The notes under the pieces were generated by a model. It saw only the letters and a list, made by a program, of their open reading frames with translations, was not told where the DNA came from and searched no databases. The position numbers were made by a program, and so were the translations under genes. 64,000 bases of DNA, from the NCBI GenBank assembly GCA_026128965.1, contig JAHCIY010000002.1, positions 1,512,108-1,576,107 on the forward strand, read 5' to 3'. This document shows, piece by piece, positions 48,750 through 56,967 of this stretch (position 1 is its first letter; each line of letters opens with the position of its first letter). The DNA comes from Labilithrix sp. Its GTDB lineage: Bacteria > Myxococcota_A > Polyangia > Polyangiales > Polyangiaceae.

Positions 48750-50372
48750 TTGTTCGCCCATGACCTGCTCGAGCTGTCGCCGCTCATCGTGGCCACGCTC
48801 GTCCCCACGCTCCTCGTCCTGGCTGCGCCCTTCGCCGCGAAGCGCGCGCCCTTCCGCGCCGCCACGTTCGCCACCGCGTTGACGGCGGGCCTCTCCGCCG
48901 TCGCGGTCCTCCTCCGCGCGACGATCGCGCTGCTCGGCGTCGCGCCGTCCACCTCGAAGCTCGGCGCCGCGCTCCACGCGCTCGTGCAGCTCGACCTCGT
49001 CTCGAGCGCGATGCTCCTCCTCGTGAGCACGCTCGCGATCGTCGTCGTGCGCTACTCGCGGACCTACCTCGCCGGCGAGCGCGGCCTCGACCGCTACGTG
49101 CGCTCGCTGCTGATGACGCTCGCGTCGGTCACGATGCTCGTCGTCTCGAACCACCTCGTGTTCCTCATCGGCGGCTGGTTCGCGGCCGGCGTCTTCTTGC
49201 ACCAGCTCCTGATGTTCTATCGGACGCGGCGCCAGGCGGTCATCGTCGCGCACAAGACGTTCCTCCTCAGCCGGCTCGCGGACCTCTTCTTCGTCGGCTC
49301 GCTCGCGTTCCTCTCCGCCGAGGTCGGCTCGCTCCGCATCGACGTCGTCAACGCGTACGCGGCGGAGGCGTCCGCGTTCACCTCGCCGCTCCACGTCGCG
49401 ACCGTCCTCCTCGTCGTCGGCGTCCTCCTCAAGACGGCGCAGGTCCCGTTCCACGGCTGGGTCACGACCGTGATGGAGGCCCCCACGCCCGTCTCCGCGC
49501 TCCTCCACGCCGGCGTCGTGAACATCGGCGGCTTCGTGATGATCCGCCTGAGCCCGCTCATGGCCCACGCCTCCATCGCGCAGGGCATGCTCGTCGGCTT
49601 CGGCCTCGCCACCGCGATCATCGGCTCGCTCGTGATGACGACGCGCCTGAGCATCAAGGTCGTGCTCGCCTGGTCCACGATCGCGCAGATGGGCTTCATG
49701 CTGATGCAGTGCGGCCTCGGCGTGTGGCACCTCGCGCTCCTCCACCTCCTCGCGCACTCCTTCTACAAGGCGCACGCCTTCCTCACCGCCGGGTCGGTCG
49801 TGTCGACCTGGCGCGGCGCGTCGCTCGTGCAGCCGAAGAAGCCGTCGCTCGGCGTCGTCGCCGCGGCCGTCCTCGTCCTCTCCGTCGCCGCCGCTCCGTT
49901 CTATGCCCTCTTCAAGCTGGCCGGCGGGCACGCGTCGCCGTCGCTCACCTCGCTCGCGCTGGTGCTCGGGCTGAGCTTCGTCCCGATGGTCGGCCGCGCC
50001 CTCGCGGCGGGGTGGCGCGCCTTCGGTCTCACCGCGCTCTTCACCGCCGGCGCGGCGGCCGCGTATTTCGCGGGTCACGTGCTCTTCGAGGAGATCGTGC
50101 CTCCCCTCGAGGCGGGGGCGGCCTCGCCGTTCCAGTGGACCGTCGTCGTCGCCGGCCTCGGGGTCCTCTTCGTCGTGCAGGTCGTCGTTCAAACGAGCCC
50201 GAGCGGCGGGCTCGCGCGCTTCCTCCATCCCCACCTCCTCAGCGGCCTCTACATCGACGATTGGTTCACGCGCGTGACGTTCCGCCTCTGGCCGCCGCGC
50301 GTCGAGCGCACCACCGCCCCGAGCCCCTCCTCGATCCGCCCGCGCGCGCCGCTGGAGTCGCGGCAGTGGTGA
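48750..50372 (+). CDS. dabB: DabB, NuoL/MnhA-like proton-pumping subunit of the DAB inorganic-carbon transporter
   Basis: Multi-TM NuoL-family motifs (WVTTVMEAPTPVSALLHAGVVNIGGF). Immediately followed by the DUF2309 gene. Confidence 0.8.
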   Translation: MFAHDLLELSPLIVATLVPTLLVLAAPFAAKRAPFRAATFATALTAGLSAVAVLLRATIALLGVAPSTSKLGAALHALVQLDLVSSAMLLLVSTLAIVVVRYSRTYLAGERGLDRYVRSLLMTLASVTMLVVSNHLVFLIGGWFAAGVFLHQLLMFYRTRRQAVIVAHKTFLLSRLADLFFVGSLAFLSAEVGSLRIDVVNAYAAEASAFTSPLHVATVLLVVGVLLKTAQVPFHGWVTTVMEAPTPVSALLHAGVVNIGGFVMIRLSPLMAHASIAQGMLVGFGLATAIIGSLVMTTRLSIKVVLAWSTIAQMGFMLMQCGLGVWHLALLHLLAHSFYKAHAFLTAGSVVSTWRGASLVQPKKPSLGVVAAAVLVLSVAAAPFYALFKLAGGHASPSLTSLALVLGLSFVPMVGRALAAGWRAFGLTALFTAGAAAAYFAGHVLFEEIVPPLEAGAASPFQWTVVVAGLGVLFVVQVVVQTSPSGGLARFLHPHLLSGLYIDDWFTRVTFRLWPPRVERTTAPSPSSIRPRAPLESRQW

Positions 50373-52771
50373 CGGAGCCGAAGGAGATCGCGGAGCGCGC
50401 GTGCGCCCGCATCGCGCCGGTGTGGCCGCTCGATCGCTTCATCGCGGTAAACCCGTTCTGGGGCCACATCGACAAGCCGTTCCCCCGCGTCGCCGGCGAG
50501 CTCGCCGCGCTCTCGGGCGCGCGCCTCATCATGCCGCGGGCGTGGTTCGCGGAGGAGTGGCGCGAAGGCCGCCTCCGCCAGCAGCACCTCAGCGCCGCGA
50601 TCGGCGAGCTCGGCTCCCACCTCACCGAGGAGCAGCTGACGGCGCTCTTCTGGATCGAGGACAAGCCGCCGCCGCGGCGCCCGCTCGTCGTCGACGTCAT
50701 GGACACGCGCTGCCACCGCGCGCTCGAGCTCTCGTGGCGGGACTTCATCGTCGCGCGTCTTGGCCTCTTCTGCGCTTCCTACTTCGATGACGGCCAGGCC
50801 CAGATTCACCCCGATCGCAAGGGCGGCCTCTACAAGACGTGGCGCGCGCAGGCCCGGCGCGATCGGGGCATTTCCCTCTTCATGGGGCTCGACGAATACC
50901 GCACCGCGGTCGCGGCGCTCCCGAAGACGGCGGACGAGATGCTCGCTACGGCGTGGGCGGAGCTCGAGGTCCCCGCCGAGCAGCGCGAGGCTTACCTCAC
51001 CGCCCTCCTCCTCGACATCAACGGCTGGTCGTCGTGGTGCGCCTATCTCCGCTGGACCGCGCGCCTCGCCGATCGAGACGATCATCACATCGTCGAGCTG
51101 CTCGCGATCCGCGTCGCCTGGGAGTGGATCCTCCTCCGCGCCGGCGGGCAGGAGCTCCGGGCCGACTGGCGTCACGCCCTCGCGAGCTGGCCGGTCATCG
51201 ACAACGCGGCGCAGATGTCGCGCACCGAAGACTGGCTCCTCCAGCGCGCGGCGGAGATCGCGTGGACGTCGCGGATAACGGAGAACCTGCCGCGGGGGTT
51301 CGCCGCGGCGCGGTCCGCGAATCCCGATTTGCAGGCGGTCTTCTGCCTCGACGTGCGGTCGGAGCCTTACCGTCGCGCGCTCGAGGCAGAGAGCAAGGAC
51401 ATCGAGACGCTCGCGTGTGCCGGCTTCTTCGGATTGCCGGTGGAGTATTCGCCGCTCGCGGCCGACGGCGCGCGGCCGCAATTGCCGGGTCTCCTCGCGC
51501 CGAAATACCGTGTTACGGACGTCGGCGCGCCGGCGGGGCTCGAAGAAAAGCGGAAATCGCGCCTCTACGCGGCGCAGGCGTGGAAGGCATTCCGCTCCAA
51601 TTCGCTGTCGAGCTTTGCGTTCGTGGACGCGATTGGCCTCTTGTTCGGCGCCGACATCCTCCGTGAGTCGTTCGGAAGAGGCGCGCGGCCGTCGGCTTAT
51701 CATGAGAGCGTGGGCCTCGACCCGAAGGAGCACGTCGCGCGCGCGCCGCGGATCACGAGCCGGGTGGACGGCGCGCCGATCTCGCTCCCGGAGCGGTGCG
51801 AGCTCGCGGAGGGGATGCTGCGCGCGATGAGCCTGACGCGCGGGTTCGCGCGGACGGTGCTCCTCGTGGGGCACGGGGCGGGGACGCGGAACAACCCGCA
51901 CGCCGCGGGGCTCGACTGCGGCGCGTGCTGCGGGCAGACAGGCGAGGTGAACGCGCGCGCGGCGGCGGCGCTGCTGAACGACGCGGAGGTCCGGGCGGGG
52001 CTGGCAGGGCGGGGGATCGAGATCCCGGCGACGACGCGGTTCGTGGCGGGCCTCCACAACACGACGACGGACGACGTGGTGTTGTTCGAGGAGGCGGCCT
52101 CGATGGGGGAGCTGCGCGGCGTGCTCGAGCGGGCGAGCGTCGCGGCGCGGCGGGAGCGCGCGCCGAAGCTGGGGCTCGGGGGGCGCTCGGACGCCGAGGT
52201 GCACGCGGCGGTGCTGGAGCGCGCGAAGAACTGGGCGGAGGTGCGGCCGGAGTGGGGCCTCGCCGGGAACGCGACGCTGATCGTGGCGCCGCGCGAGCGG
52301 ACGCGGCACCTCGACCTGAGCGGGCGCGCGTTCTTGCACGACTACCGCTTCGACGAGGACCAGGACGGCGCGATCCTCGAGCTGATCATGACGGCGCCGC
52401 TGGTCGTCTCGCACTGGATCAACTTCCAGTACTACGCGTCGATGGTGGACAACCGCCGCTACGGCAGCGGGAACAAGGTCCTCCACAACGTCGTGGGCGG
52501 GCACCTCGGGGTGTACGAGGGGAACGGCGGCGACCTCCGCATCGGCCTCTCGATCCAGTCGCTCCACGACGGGGAGCGCTGGATGCACGCGCCGCTGCGG
52601 CTCAGCGTCTTCATCGAGGCCCCGCGCCCCGCGATCGACCGGGTGCTGGAGAAGCACGCCACGGTCCGGAACCTCGTCGACAACGAGTGGGTCCACCTGT
52701 TCCAGATCGACACGACCGAGCGCGGCGTCCACGCGCGCCGAAACGGGGAGTGGGTCGCGATCGTCGCGTAG
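50366..52771 (+). CDS. dabA: DabA (DUF2309), carbonic-anhydrase-like subunit of the DAB inorganic-carbon transporter
   Basis: RFIAVNPFWGH...HGAGTRNNPHAAGLDCGACCGQ...YGSGNKVLHNVVGGHLGVYEGNGGDLRIGL is diagnostic of DUF2309. GTG start overlaps the dabB stop. Confidence 0.85.
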   Translation: MVTEPKEIAERACARIAPVWPLDRFIAVNPFWGHIDKPFPRVAGELAALSGARLIMPRAWFAEEWREGRLRQQHLSAAIGELGSHLTEEQLTALFWIEDKPPPRRPLVVDVMDTRCHRALELSWRDFIVARLGLFCASYFDDGQAQIHPDRKGGLYKTWRAQARRDRGISLFMGLDEYRTAVAALPKTADEMLATAWAELEVPAEQREAYLTALLLDINGWSSWCAYLRWTARLADRDDHHIVELLAIRVAWEWILLRAGGQELRADWRHALASWPVIDNAAQMSRTEDWLLQRAAEIAWTSRITENLPRGFAAARSANPDLQAVFCLDVRSEPYRRALEAESKDIETLACAGFFGLPVEYSPLAADGARPQLPGLLAPKYRVTDVGAPAGLEEKRKSRLYAAQAWKAFRSNSLSSFAFVDAIGLLFGADILRESFGRGARPSAYHESVGLDPKEHVARAPRITSRVDGAPISLPERCELAEGMLRAMSLTRGFARTVLLVGHGAGTRNNPHAAGLDCGACCGQTGEVNARAAAALLNDAEVRAGLAGRGIEIPATTRFVAGLHNTTTDDVVLFEEAASMGELRGVLERASVAARRERAPKLGLGGRSDAEVHAAVLERAKNWAEVRPEWGLAGNATLIVAPRERTRHLDLSGRAFLHDYRFDEDQDGAILELIMTAPLVVSHWINFQYYASMVDNRRYGSGNKVLHNVVGGHLGVYEGNGGDLRIGLSIQSLHDGERWMHAPLRLSVFIEAPRPAIDRVLEKHATVRNLVDNEWVHLFQIDTTERGVHARRNGEWVAIVA

Positions 52772-52782
52772 CCGCGGCGGCG

Positions 52783-54264
52783 TCAGTGGCTGTCCGGGTC
52801 GACGCACGTCGCGGCGTCGCCGCGGGCGGCGCTGTCGTCGGTGAGGCCGATGTCGGCCGGGCCGGTGTGGCGGTGGTAGATGCCGAGCACCTCCTCCGCG
52901 ACGTCCTGATAGACGGCGCGCTTCGCCTCCGAGTCGAGCCAGATCGTGAGCTCGCGGAGCCGCGTGCCGCCGAGCATCACGTGGCGGCGGAGCGTGTTCA
53001 TCATCGCGCTCGCGCACATCTCGATGCTCACGCGGCCGACGCCGGTCCCGAGCGCCGGCGCCGCGAGCGTGGCGCAGCCCTGCTCGTCCGCGAGCAGGAG
53101 CGCGCGCGCGAACGCGCGGCCGACGCAAGAGACCTCGCTCCACGCGCTCACGGCGTGGAACACGTGACGCGCCTCGAGCGCGCCCGCGCCGGTGCGCACG
53201 CAGGAGCCGAGCGCCTGCTCGCCGTTCCGCATCGCCTCCTCTTCGATCTCGGCGCCGCCCCGCGCCTTGAGCGCGCCCGCGACGCCGAGCTCCATCCGCA
53301 TCTTGAAGTTCGCGCTCGACACGATCGCGGCCACCGACGCGTCGGCGATGTCGCCGACGACGAAGCGGAGCTGCACGCGGCCGACGCCGAGCTCGTGCGC
53401 GAGCGTGCGCGTCGCGACGGGGGGCGGCGGCTCGATCGCGTTCGAGAGCATCGTGAAGTGCGCGAGCGGCGCGAGGATGTCCCGCGGGCGCACGGCGAGG
53501 TCCTTCGCGACCATACGCCGGATCACGTCCTGGAAGTACGCCTCCGCGGGCGACGCCGGCTGCGGGAGCCGCGGCGGCGTGTCGGGATCGAGGAGCTCCT
53601 CGACGTTCGCGAACGGCCCGCGGCCGTAGCGGAGATCGCACGCCGTCGCGCCCGCGCCCCACACGTCGGTGAAGCGGCCGATCTCGCCGCGCCGCAGCTG
53701 CTCCGGCGCCATGAAGGCGGGCGTGCCCGCGCCGACCGCGCCCTCGGGGACGCTCGTGTCGCTCCGCGCGACGGCGATGCCGAAGTCGCCGAGGCGGATG
53801 CCGATCTCGGGATCGCCGAACACGTTCGACGGCTTGAGATCGCGATGGATGACGCCCGCCTGGTGCGCGGCGCGAAGACCCATGCATACTTCACACATCA
53901 CGCGGCAGACCGTCCAGAGCGGCAGGCCGACGCCGAGCGCGACGCGGCGGCGGCGGTCGAGCTCGGCGAAGTCGAGGCCGTCGACGTACTCCTGGACGAG
54001 GTACGGCGTGGGCTGCCCTTCGTCGATGACGTGCCCGGCGTCGAGCGCGCGCACGATGCGGGGGCTCGAGACGCGCGCCATCAGCCGCGCCTCGGAGAGG
54101 ATGCGGTCCGCCGCGTCGGGCGTCGTCGCGCGCAGCTCGCGGCGGAGCGTCTTCACGACGACCGGCGCCGCGAGCGCGACGTGCTTCGCGAGCCACACCT
54201 CGCTCATCCCCCCTTCGCCGAGGTGCCCCCAGACCTCGTACCCGGGAACGACGAGGTTCTTCAT
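52783..54264 (-). CDS. serine/threonine protein kinase fused to a C-terminal macro (ADP-ribose-binding) domain
   Basis: Kinase motifs GEGGMSEVWLAKH, VVKTL, HRDLKPSNVF, DFGIA. Macro motifs in the C-terminus: FVVGDIADASVAAIVSSANFKMRMELGVAGALKARGG...LAAPALGTGVGRVS. Confidence 0.8.
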   Translation of the reverse strand: MKNLVVPGYEVWGHLGEGGMSEVWLAKHVALAAPVVVKTLRRELRATTPDAADRILSEARLMARVSSPRIVRALDAGHVIDEGQPTPYLVQEYVDGLDFAELDRRRRVALGVGLPLWTVCRVMCEVCMGLRAAHQAGVIHRDLKPSNVFGDPEIGIRLGDFGIAVARSDTSVPEGAVGAGTPAFMAPEQLRRGEIGRFTDVWGAGATACDLRYGRGPFANVEELLDPDTPPRLPQPASPAEAYFQDVIRRMVAKDLAVRPRDILAPLAHFTMLSNAIEPPPPVATRTLAHELGVGRVQLRFVVGDIADASVAAIVSSANFKMRMELGVAGALKARGGAEIEEEAMRNGEQALGSCVRTGAGALEARHVFHAVSAWSEVSCVGRAFARALLLADEQGCATLAAPALGTGVGRVSIEMCASAMMNTLRRHVMLGGTRLRELTIWLDSEAKRAVYQDVAEEVLGIYHRHTGPADIGLTDDSAARGDAATCVDPDSH

Positions 54265-54270
54265 GCAGGT

Positions 54271-54431
54271 TCGAGAGGGCTCTGCCCTCTCGAGCTCTCC
54301 CGCCGGGGGTCGCTGCGCGCGCGGGGCGCGCTCCGCCGCCCCCGGACCCCCGCGAGAGGGCGCTGCCCGCGCTGTCCTCTCGAGCCGCGTGCGGGGCGCG
54401 CTCCGCCGCCCCCGCCGCCCCCGCCGCCCCC
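54271..54431. repeat. two imperfect about 75-80 bp tandem direct repeats, each containing a GAGAGGGC...GCCCTCTC hairpin, ending in a (GCCGCCCCC)x3 microsatellite
   Basis: Unit 1 is 54271-54343 and unit 2 is 54352-54431. Shared blocks are gagagggc.ctgccc, tctcgagc and gcggggcgcgctccgccgcccccg. Located between the gcvH 3' end and the kinase start. Confidence 0.6.
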
Positions 54432-54457
54432 GGGAGGGGCTTTGCGGTTCTGTCGGG

Positions 54458-54841
54458 TCAATGGGCGGAGTCTTTTACGTGGGTTTGGTAGGCGGACTGG
54501 TCCATCAGGCCGTCGATGGGGGTGTCGGTCTCGATCACGATCATCCACGCGGCGTAGGGGTCGGCGTTCACCGACTCCGGGGACGCGTCGAGGGCGCCGT
54601 TGACCTCGACGACCTTGCCGCTGATCGGCGCGTAGAGATCGGAGAGGGTCTTCACGCTCTCGATCGTGCCGAAGGTCTTCCCCGCGACGAGCTGGTCGCC
54701 GACCTTCGCGTCGATCGTCACGAGGGTGATGTCACCGAGCTGCTCGACCGCGAAGGCGGTGATCCCCACCTTGACGCGTTTTCCGTCGACCTTCGCCCAC
54801 TCGTGATCTTTGGTGTATTTGAGATCTGCGGGGAAATCCAT
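54458..54841 (-). CDS. gcvH: glycine cleavage system H protein
   Basis: Lipoyl-lysine motif FGTIESVKTLSDLYAPISG. 127 aa. Confidence 0.9.
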   Translation of the reverse strand: MDFPADLKYTKDHEWAKVDGKRVKVGITAFAVEQLGDITLVTIDAKVGDQLVAGKTFGTIESVKTLSDLYAPISGKVVEVNGALDASPESVNADPYAAWMIVIETDTPIDGLMDQSAYQTHVKDSAH

Positions 54842-54857: not shown

Positions 54858-55952
54858 TTATTGGGCGCGCTTGTAGAACGGAGTCTTCACGACGACGGCC
54901 TCGACGTCCTTGCCGCGGCAGTCGACGAGGAGCTTGGTGCCGATCGCGGTGAGCTCGGCCGGCAGGTACCCGAGCCCGATGTTCTTGCCGACGGTGGGGG
55001 CGGGGCTCCCGCTCGTGCACGCGCCGACGACCTTGCCGCTCGTGTCCTTCAGCGGGTAGCCGCCGCGTGCGATGCCGCGGCCGGTGACCTCGAAGCCGAC
55101 GAGCTTCCGCGGGAGCGGCGCGGCCTTGATCGCGGCGAGCGCCTCCTTGCCGACGAACATCGCCTTGTCGAGCTTCGTCACCCAGCCGAGGCCGGCCTCG
55201 ATCGGGTTCGTCGTCTCGTCGATGTCGTTGCCGTAGAGCGAGAGGCGCGCCTCGAGCCGCAGCGTGTCGCGCGCGCCGAGCCCGATCGGCTTCGCGCCCT
55301 TGCCGACGAGCGCGTCCCAGACCTTCGGCGCGTCGTCCCACGGGCAGAAGATCTCGACGCCGTCCTCGCCGGTGTAGCCCGTGCGCGCGGCGGTGCAGTG
55401 GACGCCCGCGATCTCGGCGTCGCGGAAGTGGAAGCTCTTGAGCTCGCGAAGCTTCGCCGCGTCTCCGCCGAGCGCGTCGAGCAGATCGAAGGCCTTCGGT
55501 CCCTGCAGCGCGAGGAGCGCGGTCGCGTCGGTCTGGTCCTTGAACTCGCAGTGGTCCACGGCCGCCTTCGCGAAGTGCGCCGCCATCTTCTCGTGGTTCG
55601 ACGCGTTGCAGACGATGAGCCACTGGTCCTTCGCCGCGCGGTAGACGATGAGGTCGTCGAGGATCGTGCCCTTCTCGTTGCAGGCGCAGGTGTACATCGC
55701 CTGCCCGTCGACGAGCTTCGACGCGTCGTTCGTGACGAGGTAGTCGACGACCGCGGCGGCGTGCTCGCCCGACATCGAGAGCTCGCCCATGTGCGACACG
55801 TCGAAGATGCCGGCGCCGGTGCGCACCGCCTGATGCTCGTCGACGATGCCGGTGTACTGGATCGGCATCTCGAAGCCGGCGAACGGCACCATCCGGGCCT
55901 TGGCCGCGACGTGGCGATCGTAGAGCGAGGTCCGGCGTGTAGCTTCCGTCAT
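54858..55952 (-). CDS. gcvT: glycine cleavage system aminomethyltransferase T
   Basis: LYDRHVAAKARMVPFAGFEMPIQYTGIVDEHQAVRTGAGIFDVSHMG is the canonical GcvT N-terminus. Start placed at MTEATRR (55952). Confidence 0.9.
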   Translation of the reverse strand: MTEATRRTSLYDRHVAAKARMVPFAGFEMPIQYTGIVDEHQAVRTGAGIFDVSHMGELSMSGEHAAAVVDYLVTNDASKLVDGQAMYTCACNEKGTILDDLIVYRAAKDQWLIVCNASNHEKMAAHFAKAAVDHCEFKDQTDATALLALQGPKAFDLLDALGGDAAKLRELKSFHFRDAEIAGVHCTAARTGYTGEDGVEIFCPWDDAPKVWDALVGKGAKPIGLGARDTLRLEARLSLYGNDIDETTNPIEAGLGWVTKLDKAMFVGKEALAAIKAAPLPRKLVGFEVTGRGIARGGYPLKDTSGKVVGACTSGSPAPTVGKNIGLGYLPAELTAIGTKLLVDCRGKDVEAVVVKTPFYKRAQ

Positions 55953-56055
55953 GCGGAGCCAAGGTACTCGGGATGCGCCGACATCGGAAGAGCGCGCCAA
56001 GCGGCGCTTCTTGCCGCTCTCGACAGAGGGAGCCGATCGCTTATCCTCCGCGTCG

Positions 56056-56967
56056 ATGGGCACGCCCTGGGATCGCGCGGCGACGAAGTACCTCGACGAG
56101 TGGGTCCCGCGCTTCGTGCCTTACCACCTCGATCTCGTGCAGGAGCTCACGCTCATGCAGGGGCAGCGCGTCCTCGTCGTCAGCGCGGGCCTCGGCGCGG
56201 AGGTGCTCGCCCTCGCGCGCGCGGTCGGTGACAAGGGCGTCGTCCGCGCGACCGATCCGAGCGAGGATCTCGTCGGCATGTGCCAGGAGCAGGTGTCGAA
56301 GGCCGGCTTCGCGGGCGTCACCTGCGAGCGCGCCGAGCCGGACGACGTCGGCGCCGGCGGCTGGCACGCGATCGTCTGCGCGTTCGGCCTCTGGAGCGTC
56401 AAGGACCGCGTCTCGCTCATGAAGGCGTGGGCCTCGGCGCTGGTCCCGACCGGCAAGGTGGGCGTCCTCATCTTCGGGCCGCCCGATCAGGAGGACCCGT
56501 TCGAGCTGCTCGCGCAGTCGCTGCGGGAGCTCGAGCCCGACGCCGTCGCGACCCCGGCGCGCATCGACTCCGATCGCGAGTCGATGGCGCGGATGTTCGA
56601 GGACGGCGGCCTCTCCCTCGTGCGCCACACCGTGCTCCGCCACACGCTGACGTTCCCGAGCGCGGAGGCGTTCATCGCCGCGATCCGCGAGGGCCGCACG
56701 TGGCGGCGCGTCTGGCAGGAGCTCGGAGACGAGCGGATGGGCCTCGTCACCGCGCGCTTCTACGATCGCGTCGGCGGCCCGACCGAGCCGATGACGTTCG
56801 AGCCCGCCGTCACCTGCGCCATCGCCGCGCTGCCCGGCGCCGAGGTCGAGCTCGCGACGCGCTCGCGCGTGACGGTGCCGCCGCTCAGCTCCGCCTCGGC
56901 GGTCCCGAACCCGGAGCCGTCGAAGCCGCAGGTCGACCCTTACAAGGACGATCCGTTCCGAGACTGA
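56056..56967 (+). CDS. class I SAM-dependent methyltransferase
   Basis: VLVVSAGLGAEVLALAR (motif I). Divergent from gcvT with a roughly 100 bp intergenic region. Confidence 0.7.
   Translation: MGTPWDRAATKYLDEWVPRFVPYHLDLVQELTLMQGQRVLVVSAGLGAEVLALARAVGDKGVVRATDPSEDLVGMCQEQVSKAGFAGVTCERAEPDDVGAGGWHAIVCAFGLWSVKDRVSLMKAWASALVPTGKVGVLIFGPPDQEDPFELLAQSLRELEPDAVATPARIDSDRESMARMFEDGGLSLVRHTVLRHTLTFPSAEAFIAAIREGRTWRRVWQELGDERMGLVTARFYDRVGGPTEPMTFEPAVTCAIAALPGAEVELATRSRVTVPPLSSASAVPNPEPSKPQVDPYKDDPFRD

Follow-up and report, generated by a model that had tools for sequence, protein, structure and literature searches.

An N-terminal kinase domain followed by a C-terminal sensor is the standard layout of bacterial Ser/Thr kinases (STKs), and, to our knowledge, few bacterial readers of ADP-ribose (ADPr) are known. 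Endogenous ADP-ribosylation signalling is poorly understood in bacteria, including the decades-old Myxococcus observations cited in PMC8120803. Here, we analysed a 64,000-nucleotide stretch of Labilithrix sp. DNA (contig JAHCIY010000002.1, positions 1,512,108 to 1,576,107; hereafter the window) and focused on one gene, at positions 52783..54264 of the minus strand, which encodes a kinase domain followed by a macro domain and is referred to as STK-Macro. ADP-ribose-linked signalling appeared to be the most reasonable reading of this protein. We propose that STK-Macro is a soluble cytoplasmic Hanks-type kinase, whose macro domain would serve as an input or targeting module for an ADP-ribose-type signal; this proposal is drawn from sequence comparisons, and we regard it as evenly balanced between right and wrong.

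The residues required for hydrolysis by macro domains have been described in several families. The OiMacroD motif was defined as N-x6-G-G-[VLI]-D, and a G37V variant of this protein, modified at the equivalent of the first glycine of the pair, still bound ADPr, without the catalytic water and with a lowered activity (PMC5413906). In the same study, TTHA0132, with A34 at the Asp position, was classed as MacroD-like; Af1521, which has no MacroD Asp, was nonetheless active through a substrate-assisted mechanism; and the Y190N mutation of hMacroD2, which affects the loop-2 aromatic, was cited as impairing ADPr binding (PMC5413906). The loop-2 aromatic was also found to be needed for hydrolase activity in PARP14, PARP9, and viral macro domains (PMC10221186). 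More generally, loss of the Asn, the Gly, or the hydrophobic-aromatic residue accompanied the loss of hydrolase activity in PARP14, PARP9, alphavirus, and coronavirus macro domains, and loss of single determinants abolished activity in those of PARP14 and alphaviruses; the authors considered that a reader function was likely kept when hydrolase determinants were lost (PMC10221186).

In the literature searched on prokaryotic kinomes and ADP-ribosylation, we found no description or experimental study of a kinase-macro architecture, which agrees with an earlier, sequence-only reading of the gene, according to which this architecture is not standard in characterised myxobacterial kinases. STK-Macro thus joins a bacterial Hanks kinase to a putative input domain of a type, the macro domain, that had not been described in this role; it is already present in databases and unstudied.

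The STK-Macro gene and its two domains

The open reading frame (ORF) starts with an ATG and comprises a complete coding sequence of 493 codons (493 amino acids) followed by a stop. Its G+C content by codon position (0.74/0.50/0.96) is typical for real genes in a window of 72% GC, and the homologs share the same N-terminal start when family members are aligned. The protein was 100% identical to NCBI entries MBX3229194.1 / MCW5813078.1, from a metagenome-assembled genome (MAG) of Labilithrix sp., which are merely labelled "serine/threonine-protein kinase". An ortholog is present in the cultured species Labilithrix luteola (AKU99463.1 / UniProt A0A0K1Q0Z9; locus L023 in our genome scan). The ORF is a genuine gene encoding a complete kinase and a macro domain. 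The maximum Kyte-Doolittle value of the protein (19-residue window) was 1.53, corresponding to the absence of a transmembrane segment, and the protein is therefore expected to be cytoplasmic.

Residues 9-223 matched the Pfam family Pkinase (PF00069) with E = 1.5e-34 and 120 bits, against a cutoff of 31.7, and the Hanks-type Ser/Thr kinase domain as a whole was placed at residues 9 to ~263 (53476..54240, on the minus strand like all the features of the protein given below). The catalytic motifs, i.e., the Gly-rich loop (G16-S21), K38, E58, the catalytic loop HRDLKPSN (residues 140-147; 53824..53847), DFG (160-162), and APE (186-188), were invariant or near-invariant across the 20 family members aligned. 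The kinase is of the RD type, with an activation loop (residues 165-179) that was disordered in the AlphaFold2 (AF2) model. Its nearest solved structure was the kinase PknB (E = 8e-31, ~28% identity; Foldseek target-normalised TM-score of 0.71-0.80). The PASTA-kinase equivalog NCBIfam NF033483 (PknB/Stk1) was not reached, with 151.9 bits against a cutoff of 450, and was matched by the kinase core only. Judging from its motifs, the domain is a complete Hanks-type kinase with every catalytic residue, as had been claimed in the sequence-only reading.

That reading had also placed a macro domain in the C-terminal part, and this domain was recovered by profile searches. Pfam Macro (PF01661) matched residues 315-421 over the whole model (1-118 of 118), with E = 5.9e-17 and 62.1 bits against a cutoff of 22. 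The NCBIfam models for ADP-ribose binding and for O-acetyl-ADP-ribose (OAADPr) deacetylase (PRK00431) matched residues 292-460 with E down to 1.8e-19, all of these matches being far under the equivalog cutoffs (e.g., 70 bits versus 246). Among solved structures, the best match of the C-terminal 204 amino acids was the macro domain TTHA0132 (PDB 2dx6; E = 7.7e-20). The three strings on which the domain had originally been recognised were all present in the protein (AAIVSSANF at residues 312-320, GVAGAL at 327-332, and GTGVG at 406-410). On the basis of these profile and structure matches, residues 297-460 (52885..53376) appear to form a bona fide macro domain of the TTHA0132 (MacroD-like) type.

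The two ligand loops of this domain combined conserved and altered positions, which were compared between the two clades of the family described below (clade A, which includes the window protein, and clade B). Loop 1 (N319-FKMRME-L326-G327-V328-A329-G-A-L332; 53269..53310) was delimited using an ungapped alignment with TTHA0132 and OiMacroD numbering. It retained the Asn and the flanking Gly, with a Leu at the first Gly of the MacroD GG pair and an Ala at the position of the MacroD catalytic Asp; the MacroD signature N-x6-G-G-[VLI]-D was thus not matched by the window sequence (N319-x6-L326-G327-V328-A329). The stretch following N-x6 was S-G-V-G in the clade-A consensus and [VL]-G-V-A in clade B, with Ala or Gly at the Asp position. 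In loop 2 (P403-A-L-G-T-G408-V409-G410-R411; 53032..53058, from alignments), the phosphate-binding GTG was invariant, and the aromatic of the MacroD signature G-[VIA]-[YF]-G was replaced by Gly (Ala or Gly family-wide, in both clades), so that G408-V409-G410-R411 did not match this signature either.

Other pocket positions were kept. The putative adenine-contacting Asp (D305), N319, G327-V328, and P403-A-L-G-T-G408 were invariant or near-invariant in both clades. As the two clades are only ~30-35% identical overall, this retention argues that the ligand pocket of the macro domain is under selection. We also observed an invariant Cys-x-x-Arg pair (C380 and R383; about 53116-53127), located in the helix after the HAV strand in both kinase-fused macro clades; the corresponding residues of TTHA0132 are Thr and Lys. 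Because three positions are altered together (the first Gly of loop 1, the Asp of MacroD enzymes, and the aromatic of loop 2), and the ADP-ribose-binding residues are kept, the macro domain is more likely to be a reader or sensor than an eraser. Of the two activities suggested in the sequence-only reading, reading or removing ADP-ribosylation, the former is therefore the likelier, the latter being at odds with three missing hydrolase determinants.

The interdomain linker (residues 264-296; 53377..53475), defined from the AF2 model and family conservation, consists of a conserved helix (264-277), then two short strands that enter the macro sheet. The model of the full-length protein had a predicted template modelling score of 0.76; its block predicted local distance difference test (pLDDT) values were 88-97 for residues 241-310 and 55-92 for residues 284-459, the latter being arranged as alternating strands and helices. 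This model suggests that the geometry of the kinase relative to the macro domain is fixed by the linker. When the PDB was searched for similar folds with the full-length model, only kinases were matched, indicating that no solved structure covers both domains.

The protein ends with a C-terminal tail (residues 461-493; 52786..52884), delimited by clade-A conservation and AF2 disorder, in which residues 465-493 had pLDDT values below 50 and are predicted to be disordered. A motif conserved in clade A, D471-x-G-L-P ... A485-T486-x-[LV]-D489-P490 (with [FC] at the second x), was observed in this tail, Thr486 being almost invariant; this peptide could serve for docking or autoinhibition, or be a phospho-acceptor. 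Clade-B proteins have no such tail and end right after the macro domain.

Distribution and architectures of the family

An exhaustive HMMER scan of 1.84 billion representative proteins gave ~465,000 representatives matching the STK-Macro query at E ≤ 1e-10, mostly via the kinase domain. The best 120 clusters (60-100% identity) were all Pkinase+Macro proteins of ~500 amino acids, and clade A comprised more than 120 clusters at 90% identity. In full-length matches of 36-58% identity, one alignment stretch covered both domains, and the kinase+macro architecture was confirmed by Pfam in ten of them. Clade B (P0134-like proteins), at ~36-40% identity, comprised ~95 clusters in the Myxococcota, Acidobacteriota, and Planctomycetota; Myxococcales, Kofleriaceae, Pyrinomonadaceae, and Planctomycetota were among the names of their sources. 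Some relatives had three domains: a DSP-type phosphatase (PTP-SAK / Tc-R-P / PTP-NADK families) was combined with the kinase and the macro domain in two of them (P0140 and P0215), and another (P0126) was arranged as kinase, macro domain, and kinase. These relatives suggest that the kinase and the macro domain together form a signalling cassette that can be reused.

To retrieve loci, clade-specific alignments were used, as no stretch of a single alignment over both clades was conserved enough for this purpose. With a macro-only clade-A alignment and one genome per GTDB species, 59 loci were obtained, which came from L. luteola and from MAGs of Polyangia or other Myxococcota. The kinase was fused directly upstream of the macro domain in all of them (59 out of 59), and the identities of the two domains co-varied (rho = 0.84). 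Within the clade-A macro subfamily, the kinase and the macro domain are always fused and evolve together. In metagenome contigs, macro domains at least 45% identical to clade B were fused to a kinase wherever upstream DNA exists, and none of those with at most 41% identity was fused. Although rare among kinases as a whole, kinase-macro fusion is of old origin, conserved, and obligate, and is no peculiarity of this genome. Its description as uncommon in the sequence-only reading holds relative to all kinases, but does not fit a conserved orthologous family of this size.

A second, shorter member of the same cluster (344-353 amino acids) was observed in some genomes (L044 and L045, in tandem; L050), beside the kinase-macro gene or elsewhere in the locus. 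These copies point to local duplication.

Clade-B neighbourhoods were heterogeneous and included peptidase M10, MFS transporters, PGA_cap, HEAT-repeat proteins, and unannotated genes; no gcv neighbours were present in the clade-B loci examined. In one sub-lineage, represented by soil metagenome contigs of ~56% GC, the kinase-macro gene followed a SIR2_2 gene, directly or with one gene in between (L066, 1074-7479; L072, 477-6577; L074, 5658-8525). An nSTAND1-TPR NTPase of ~1,335 amino acids was located between SIR2_2 and the kinase-macro gene in L066 and L072, with a 10-bp gap before the latter in L066, and a YjbQ/UPF0047 gene was also found upstream in L066 and L074. The SIR2_2(-nSTAND1)-kinase-macro arrangement looks like a defence-type NADase operon ending in an ADP-ribose reader kinase.

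Proposed function and rival explanations

In the mechanism that we propose for STK-Macro, a ligand of the ADP-ribose type, which may be free ADP-ribose, O-acyl-ADP-ribose, or a protein ADP-ribosyl group, would be bound by the macro domain and, because three determinants of MacroD-type catalysis are missing, would be hydrolysed by it poorly or not at all. Ligand occupancy might alter kinase activity through the rigid, conserved linker, or might dock the kinase on ADP-ribosylated substrates. The net effect would be to convert a signal of nicotinamide adenine dinucleotide (NAD+) turnover or of ADP-ribosylation into Ser/Thr phosphorylation. This sensor function is suggested by the retention of the pocket together with the loss of catalytic determinants, by the obligate fusion, by the variants with phosphatase, kinase, and macro domains, where the macro domain alone has no part in phosphotransfer and thus seems input-like, and by the linkage to SIR2, as SIR2 enzymes yield ADP-ribose-type products.

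Several observations weigh against a sensor kinase of this kind. No ADP-ribosyltransferase or sirtuin was found within ~8 kb of STK-Macro in the window, and the SIR2 linkage is limited to three contigs from one sub-lineage of clade B, i.e., of the other clade than that of the window. Coupling between the two domains is only suggested by the model. Since loss of the loop-2 aromatic impaired ADPr binding in hMacroD2, the true ligand may not be ADP-ribose itself; and, as Af1521 is active without the MacroD Asp and N319 and G327 are kept here, the domain could have residual hydrolase activity.

Taken further, this last point would make STK-Macro a bifunctional writer and eraser, whose macro domain, as an active (ADP-ribosyl)hydrolase or OAADPr deacetylase, would strip ADP-ribose from the substrates that the kinase phosphorylates. 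The matches to NCBIfam OAADPr deacetylase and ADP-ribose-binding models (E of 1e-15 to 1e-19) are consistent with such an enzyme, as are the conserved N319 and G327, the activity of Af1521, and the MacroD-like classification of TTHA0132 (PMC5413906). These matches, however, fall far short of the equivalog cutoffs, and the first loop-1 Gly (Leu here, Ser or Val elsewhere), the Asp position (Ala or Gly), and the loop-2 aromatic (Gly or Ala) are altered all together, whereas the loss of a single determinant abolished activity in PARP14 and alphavirus macro domains (PMC10221186). We consider an eraser unlikely. The same alterations could be taken as signs of a degenerate macro domain, which would act as a structural, dimerisation, or protein-protein module without a nucleotide ligand in a plain myxobacterial kinase carrying an accessory domain: of the residues that provide distal ribose and phosphate contacts in canonical macro domains, the aromatic of loop 2 and two of the three glycines of loop 1 are replaced, and hMacroD2 mutations at equivalent positions impaired ADPr binding (PMC5413906). 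However, the invariant residues cluster in the canonical ligand loops (D305, N319, G327-V328, and PALGTG), which is unexpected for a purely structural domain and makes this explanation very improbable in our view.

The position of the gene brings in a further explanation, in which STK-Macro, co-transcribed with gcvT and gcvH, would regulate the glycine cleavage system by reading or reversing an ADP-ribosyl mark on lipoyl-GcvH and/or by phosphorylating proteins of this system. In the window, gcvT (aminomethyltransferase; 54858..56063, minus strand; Pfam GCV_T, E = 9.4e-95) is the first gene of a co-directional gcvT-gcvH-STK-Macro run, with gcvH (glycine cleavage H protein; 54458..54841, minus strand; Pfam GCV_H, E = 5.6e-34) upstream of STK-Macro. 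The order metK-methyltransferase (MTase)-gcvT-gcvH-STK-Macro recurs in relatives, many of which have gcvH-kinase gaps of 7-76 bp, and a macro domain acting on a GcvH-like carrier has precedent (PMC4518038, PMC8120803). Linkage could be assessed in 54 of the 59 species loci, and neighbours were clustered over 65 loci. Half of the assessable loci (27 out of 54) had gcvTH upstream of the kinase, with gcvH immediately adjacent in 18 and separated from the kinase by more than 1 kb, as would be expected if a gene had been inserted, in 9; the other 27 had no gcvTH upstream. In these latter loci, EamA and mutS often stay downstream, as in four that have unrelated genes in the place of gcvTH; no neighbour was conserved in the most distant clade-A loci. 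Moreover, the kinase, macro, and GcvT identities to the window co-varied (rho of 0.79-0.88), as would be expected under vertical descent. Because the linkage is half-penetrant, the block is made of housekeeping genes, and identities co-vary, STK-Macro looks like a vertically inherited gene in a housekeeping block, metK-MTase-gcvTH-STK-EamA-mutS, and not like part of a dedicated operon. The 193-bp spacer with strong hairpins that precedes it in the window, the lack of gcv neighbours in clade B, and the absence of a SirTM-class sirtuin or LplA2 lipoate ligase within ~8 kb also count against a glycine cleavage regulator. A GcvH-specific function, as an echo of the SirTM/GcvH-L/macro association, was downgraded given this half-penetrant linkage within a larger housekeeping block. 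In Labilithrix, the STK-Macro gene may be co-expressed with gcvT-gcvH; we do not think that its function is specific to glycine cleavage, and a regulator of this system, proposed by analogy, seems quite improbable. A part in anti-phage defence or biological conflict, with the kinase of the window's clade sensing NAD+ breakdown, would fit the matches of the PADLOC PD-T4-6 and Mad6 kinase models (E down to 8.5e-49), the clade-B sub-lineage found behind SIR2_2 and the nSTAND1-TPR NTPase, and the variants carrying DSP-PTPase domains that Pfam names for polymorphic toxin systems. The PADLOC matches, however, concern the generic kinase core only, and the NCBIfam MAD6 cutoff was not reached (112 versus 460). 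Clade A lies in the vertically inherited housekeeping block, with no defence genes within ~8 kb of STK-Macro in the window; neither clade was present in 2.9 million viral contigs; and the other clade-B contexts are heterogeneous. Membership of an anti-phage system (PADLOC PD-T4-6, Mad6/MADS) was rejected on account of the core-only matches, the housekeeping synteny, and the absence of viral copies, and a defence role in this clade is scarcely credible.

Returning to the sensor kinase, we also considered a stronger version, which we put forward tentatively and find doubtful: the ADP-ribose or ADP-ribosyl mark would be the direct input to the Hanks kinase, and the macro reader would activate the kinase, or direct it to its targets, upon consumption of NAD+, e.g., by sirtuins, SIR2-type NADases, or ADP-ribosyltransferases. 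If true, this would be the first hard-wired relay from ADP-ribosylation to phosphorylation in prokaryotes, and in Labilithrix it could connect to lipoyl-GcvH and one-carbon metabolism. By joining a conserved ADP-ribose-type pocket to an intact kinase, the STK-Macro family offers an entry point to the control of Ser/Thr phosphorylation by NAD+-derived nucleotides. The system is tractable, with a single soluble protein of 55 kDa, a cultured host (L. luteola DSM 27648, AKU99463.1), and clear point mutants, and the phosphatase-kinase-macro and SIR2-STAND-linked relatives suggest that signalling processes of several kinds, possibly including immunity, have made use of the module. Should the macro domain be a plain accessory domain, STK-Macro would be just another entry in the large and diverse myxobacterial kinome, in which a diversity of accessory domains is expected.

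The remaining neighbours within ~8 kb of STK-Macro in the window were a methyltransferase, metK, DabA/DabB, a DinB-family protein, a hexapeptide-repeat acetyltransferase, an SH3-domain protein, and an S41 peptidase. Both metK and the methyltransferase gene lie upstream of gcvT and are divergent from it. The longest ORF of gcvT overlaps that of the divergent methyltransferase (55951-56967, plus strand) by 113 bp, and the window GcvT has 401 amino acids, compared with ~369 in relatives; the true gcvT start is probably ~30 codons downstream, inside the longest ORF, which would leave a short divergent promoter region. On the other side, an inorganic-carbon transporter pair (48750-52771, plus strand) converges on the STK-Macro gene, with stop codons 11 bp apart. 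It consists of the proton-antiporter-like DabB (48750-50372) and of DabA (PF10070, E = 5.6e-255), which ends at 52771, and was seen as a downstream neighbour in no related locus.

The gcvH-kinase spacer (54265..54457, minus strand) is usually much shorter in relatives. In the window, its 193 bp contain a tandem-duplicated, GC-rich hairpin element with a 70-nt spacing. The 22-mer GGGGCGGCGGAGCGCGCCCCGC is present in two exact copies, and only a few bases separate the end of a perfect 10-bp hairpin (TCGAGAGGGC/GCCCTCTCGA) from the ATG that follows it; the RNA fold z-score was -2.05. A dispersed repeat was considered and rejected, with only two tandem copies in the window and none in 147 related loci (L001-L147). 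The element may have arisen by insertion or duplication at this locus, or may act in the control of transcription or translation. A search of Rfam upstream of gcvT and in the spacer returned no glycine riboswitch or other structured RNA at E ≤ 1, and no convincing promoter or terminator was found in these two regions.

Comparison with known systems

Among macro domains, the closest to that of STK-Macro was TTHA0132 of Thermus thermophilus HB8, with which it has in common x-G-V-A-G-A-[IL] in loop 1, where Ala occupies the Asp position, and L-G-T-G-V-G in loop 2, where the aromatic is missing. TTHA0132 differs in being a stand-alone, uncharacterised protein of 159 amino acids with no kinase, and in having an Ala at the first-Gly position, where Leu, Ser, or Val is found in the kinase-fused family. 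The next-closest solved macro domains were macrodomain 1 of PARP14 and PARP9 and the coronavirus Mac1 (E of 1e-12 to 2.5e-11). The GVAGAL string is presumably identical in SARS-CoV-2 Mac1. Unlike STK-Macro, these domains retain the loop-2 aromatic, and belong to multidomain proteins of eukaryotes or viruses, in which they are partnered with ADP-ribosyltransferase or viral replicase domains, not with kinases. More distant matches were Af1521, MacroD1/2, YmdB, and OiMacroD (E of 1e-4 to 1e-6), which have in common with STK-Macro the fold, the adenine-binding Asp, the loop-1 Asn, and the phosphate loops, whereas their N-x6-GG-[VLI]-D and G-[VIA]-[YF]-G motifs are both broken in STK-Macro.

With regard to gene context, the SirTM/GcvH-L/Zn-macrodomain/LplA2 operon of Staphylococcus and Streptococcus also places a macro gene beside an H-type lipoyl carrier (PMC4518038, PMC8120803). 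In the window, by contrast, the carrier is a canonical GcvH accompanied by GcvT, no sirtuin or lipoate ligase is nearby, and the macro domain is TTHA0132-like and fused to a kinase, in a family in which the linkage is lost in half of the loci. Finally, STK-Macro resembles the PknB/StkP-type kinases, such as M. tuberculosis PknB (PDB 1mru/1o6y), in its catalytic fold, its motifs, and its layout, with an N-terminal kinase and a C-terminal input domain. It differs from them in having neither a transmembrane segment nor PASTA repeats, and its putative input is an intracellular macro domain in place of an extracellular sensor.

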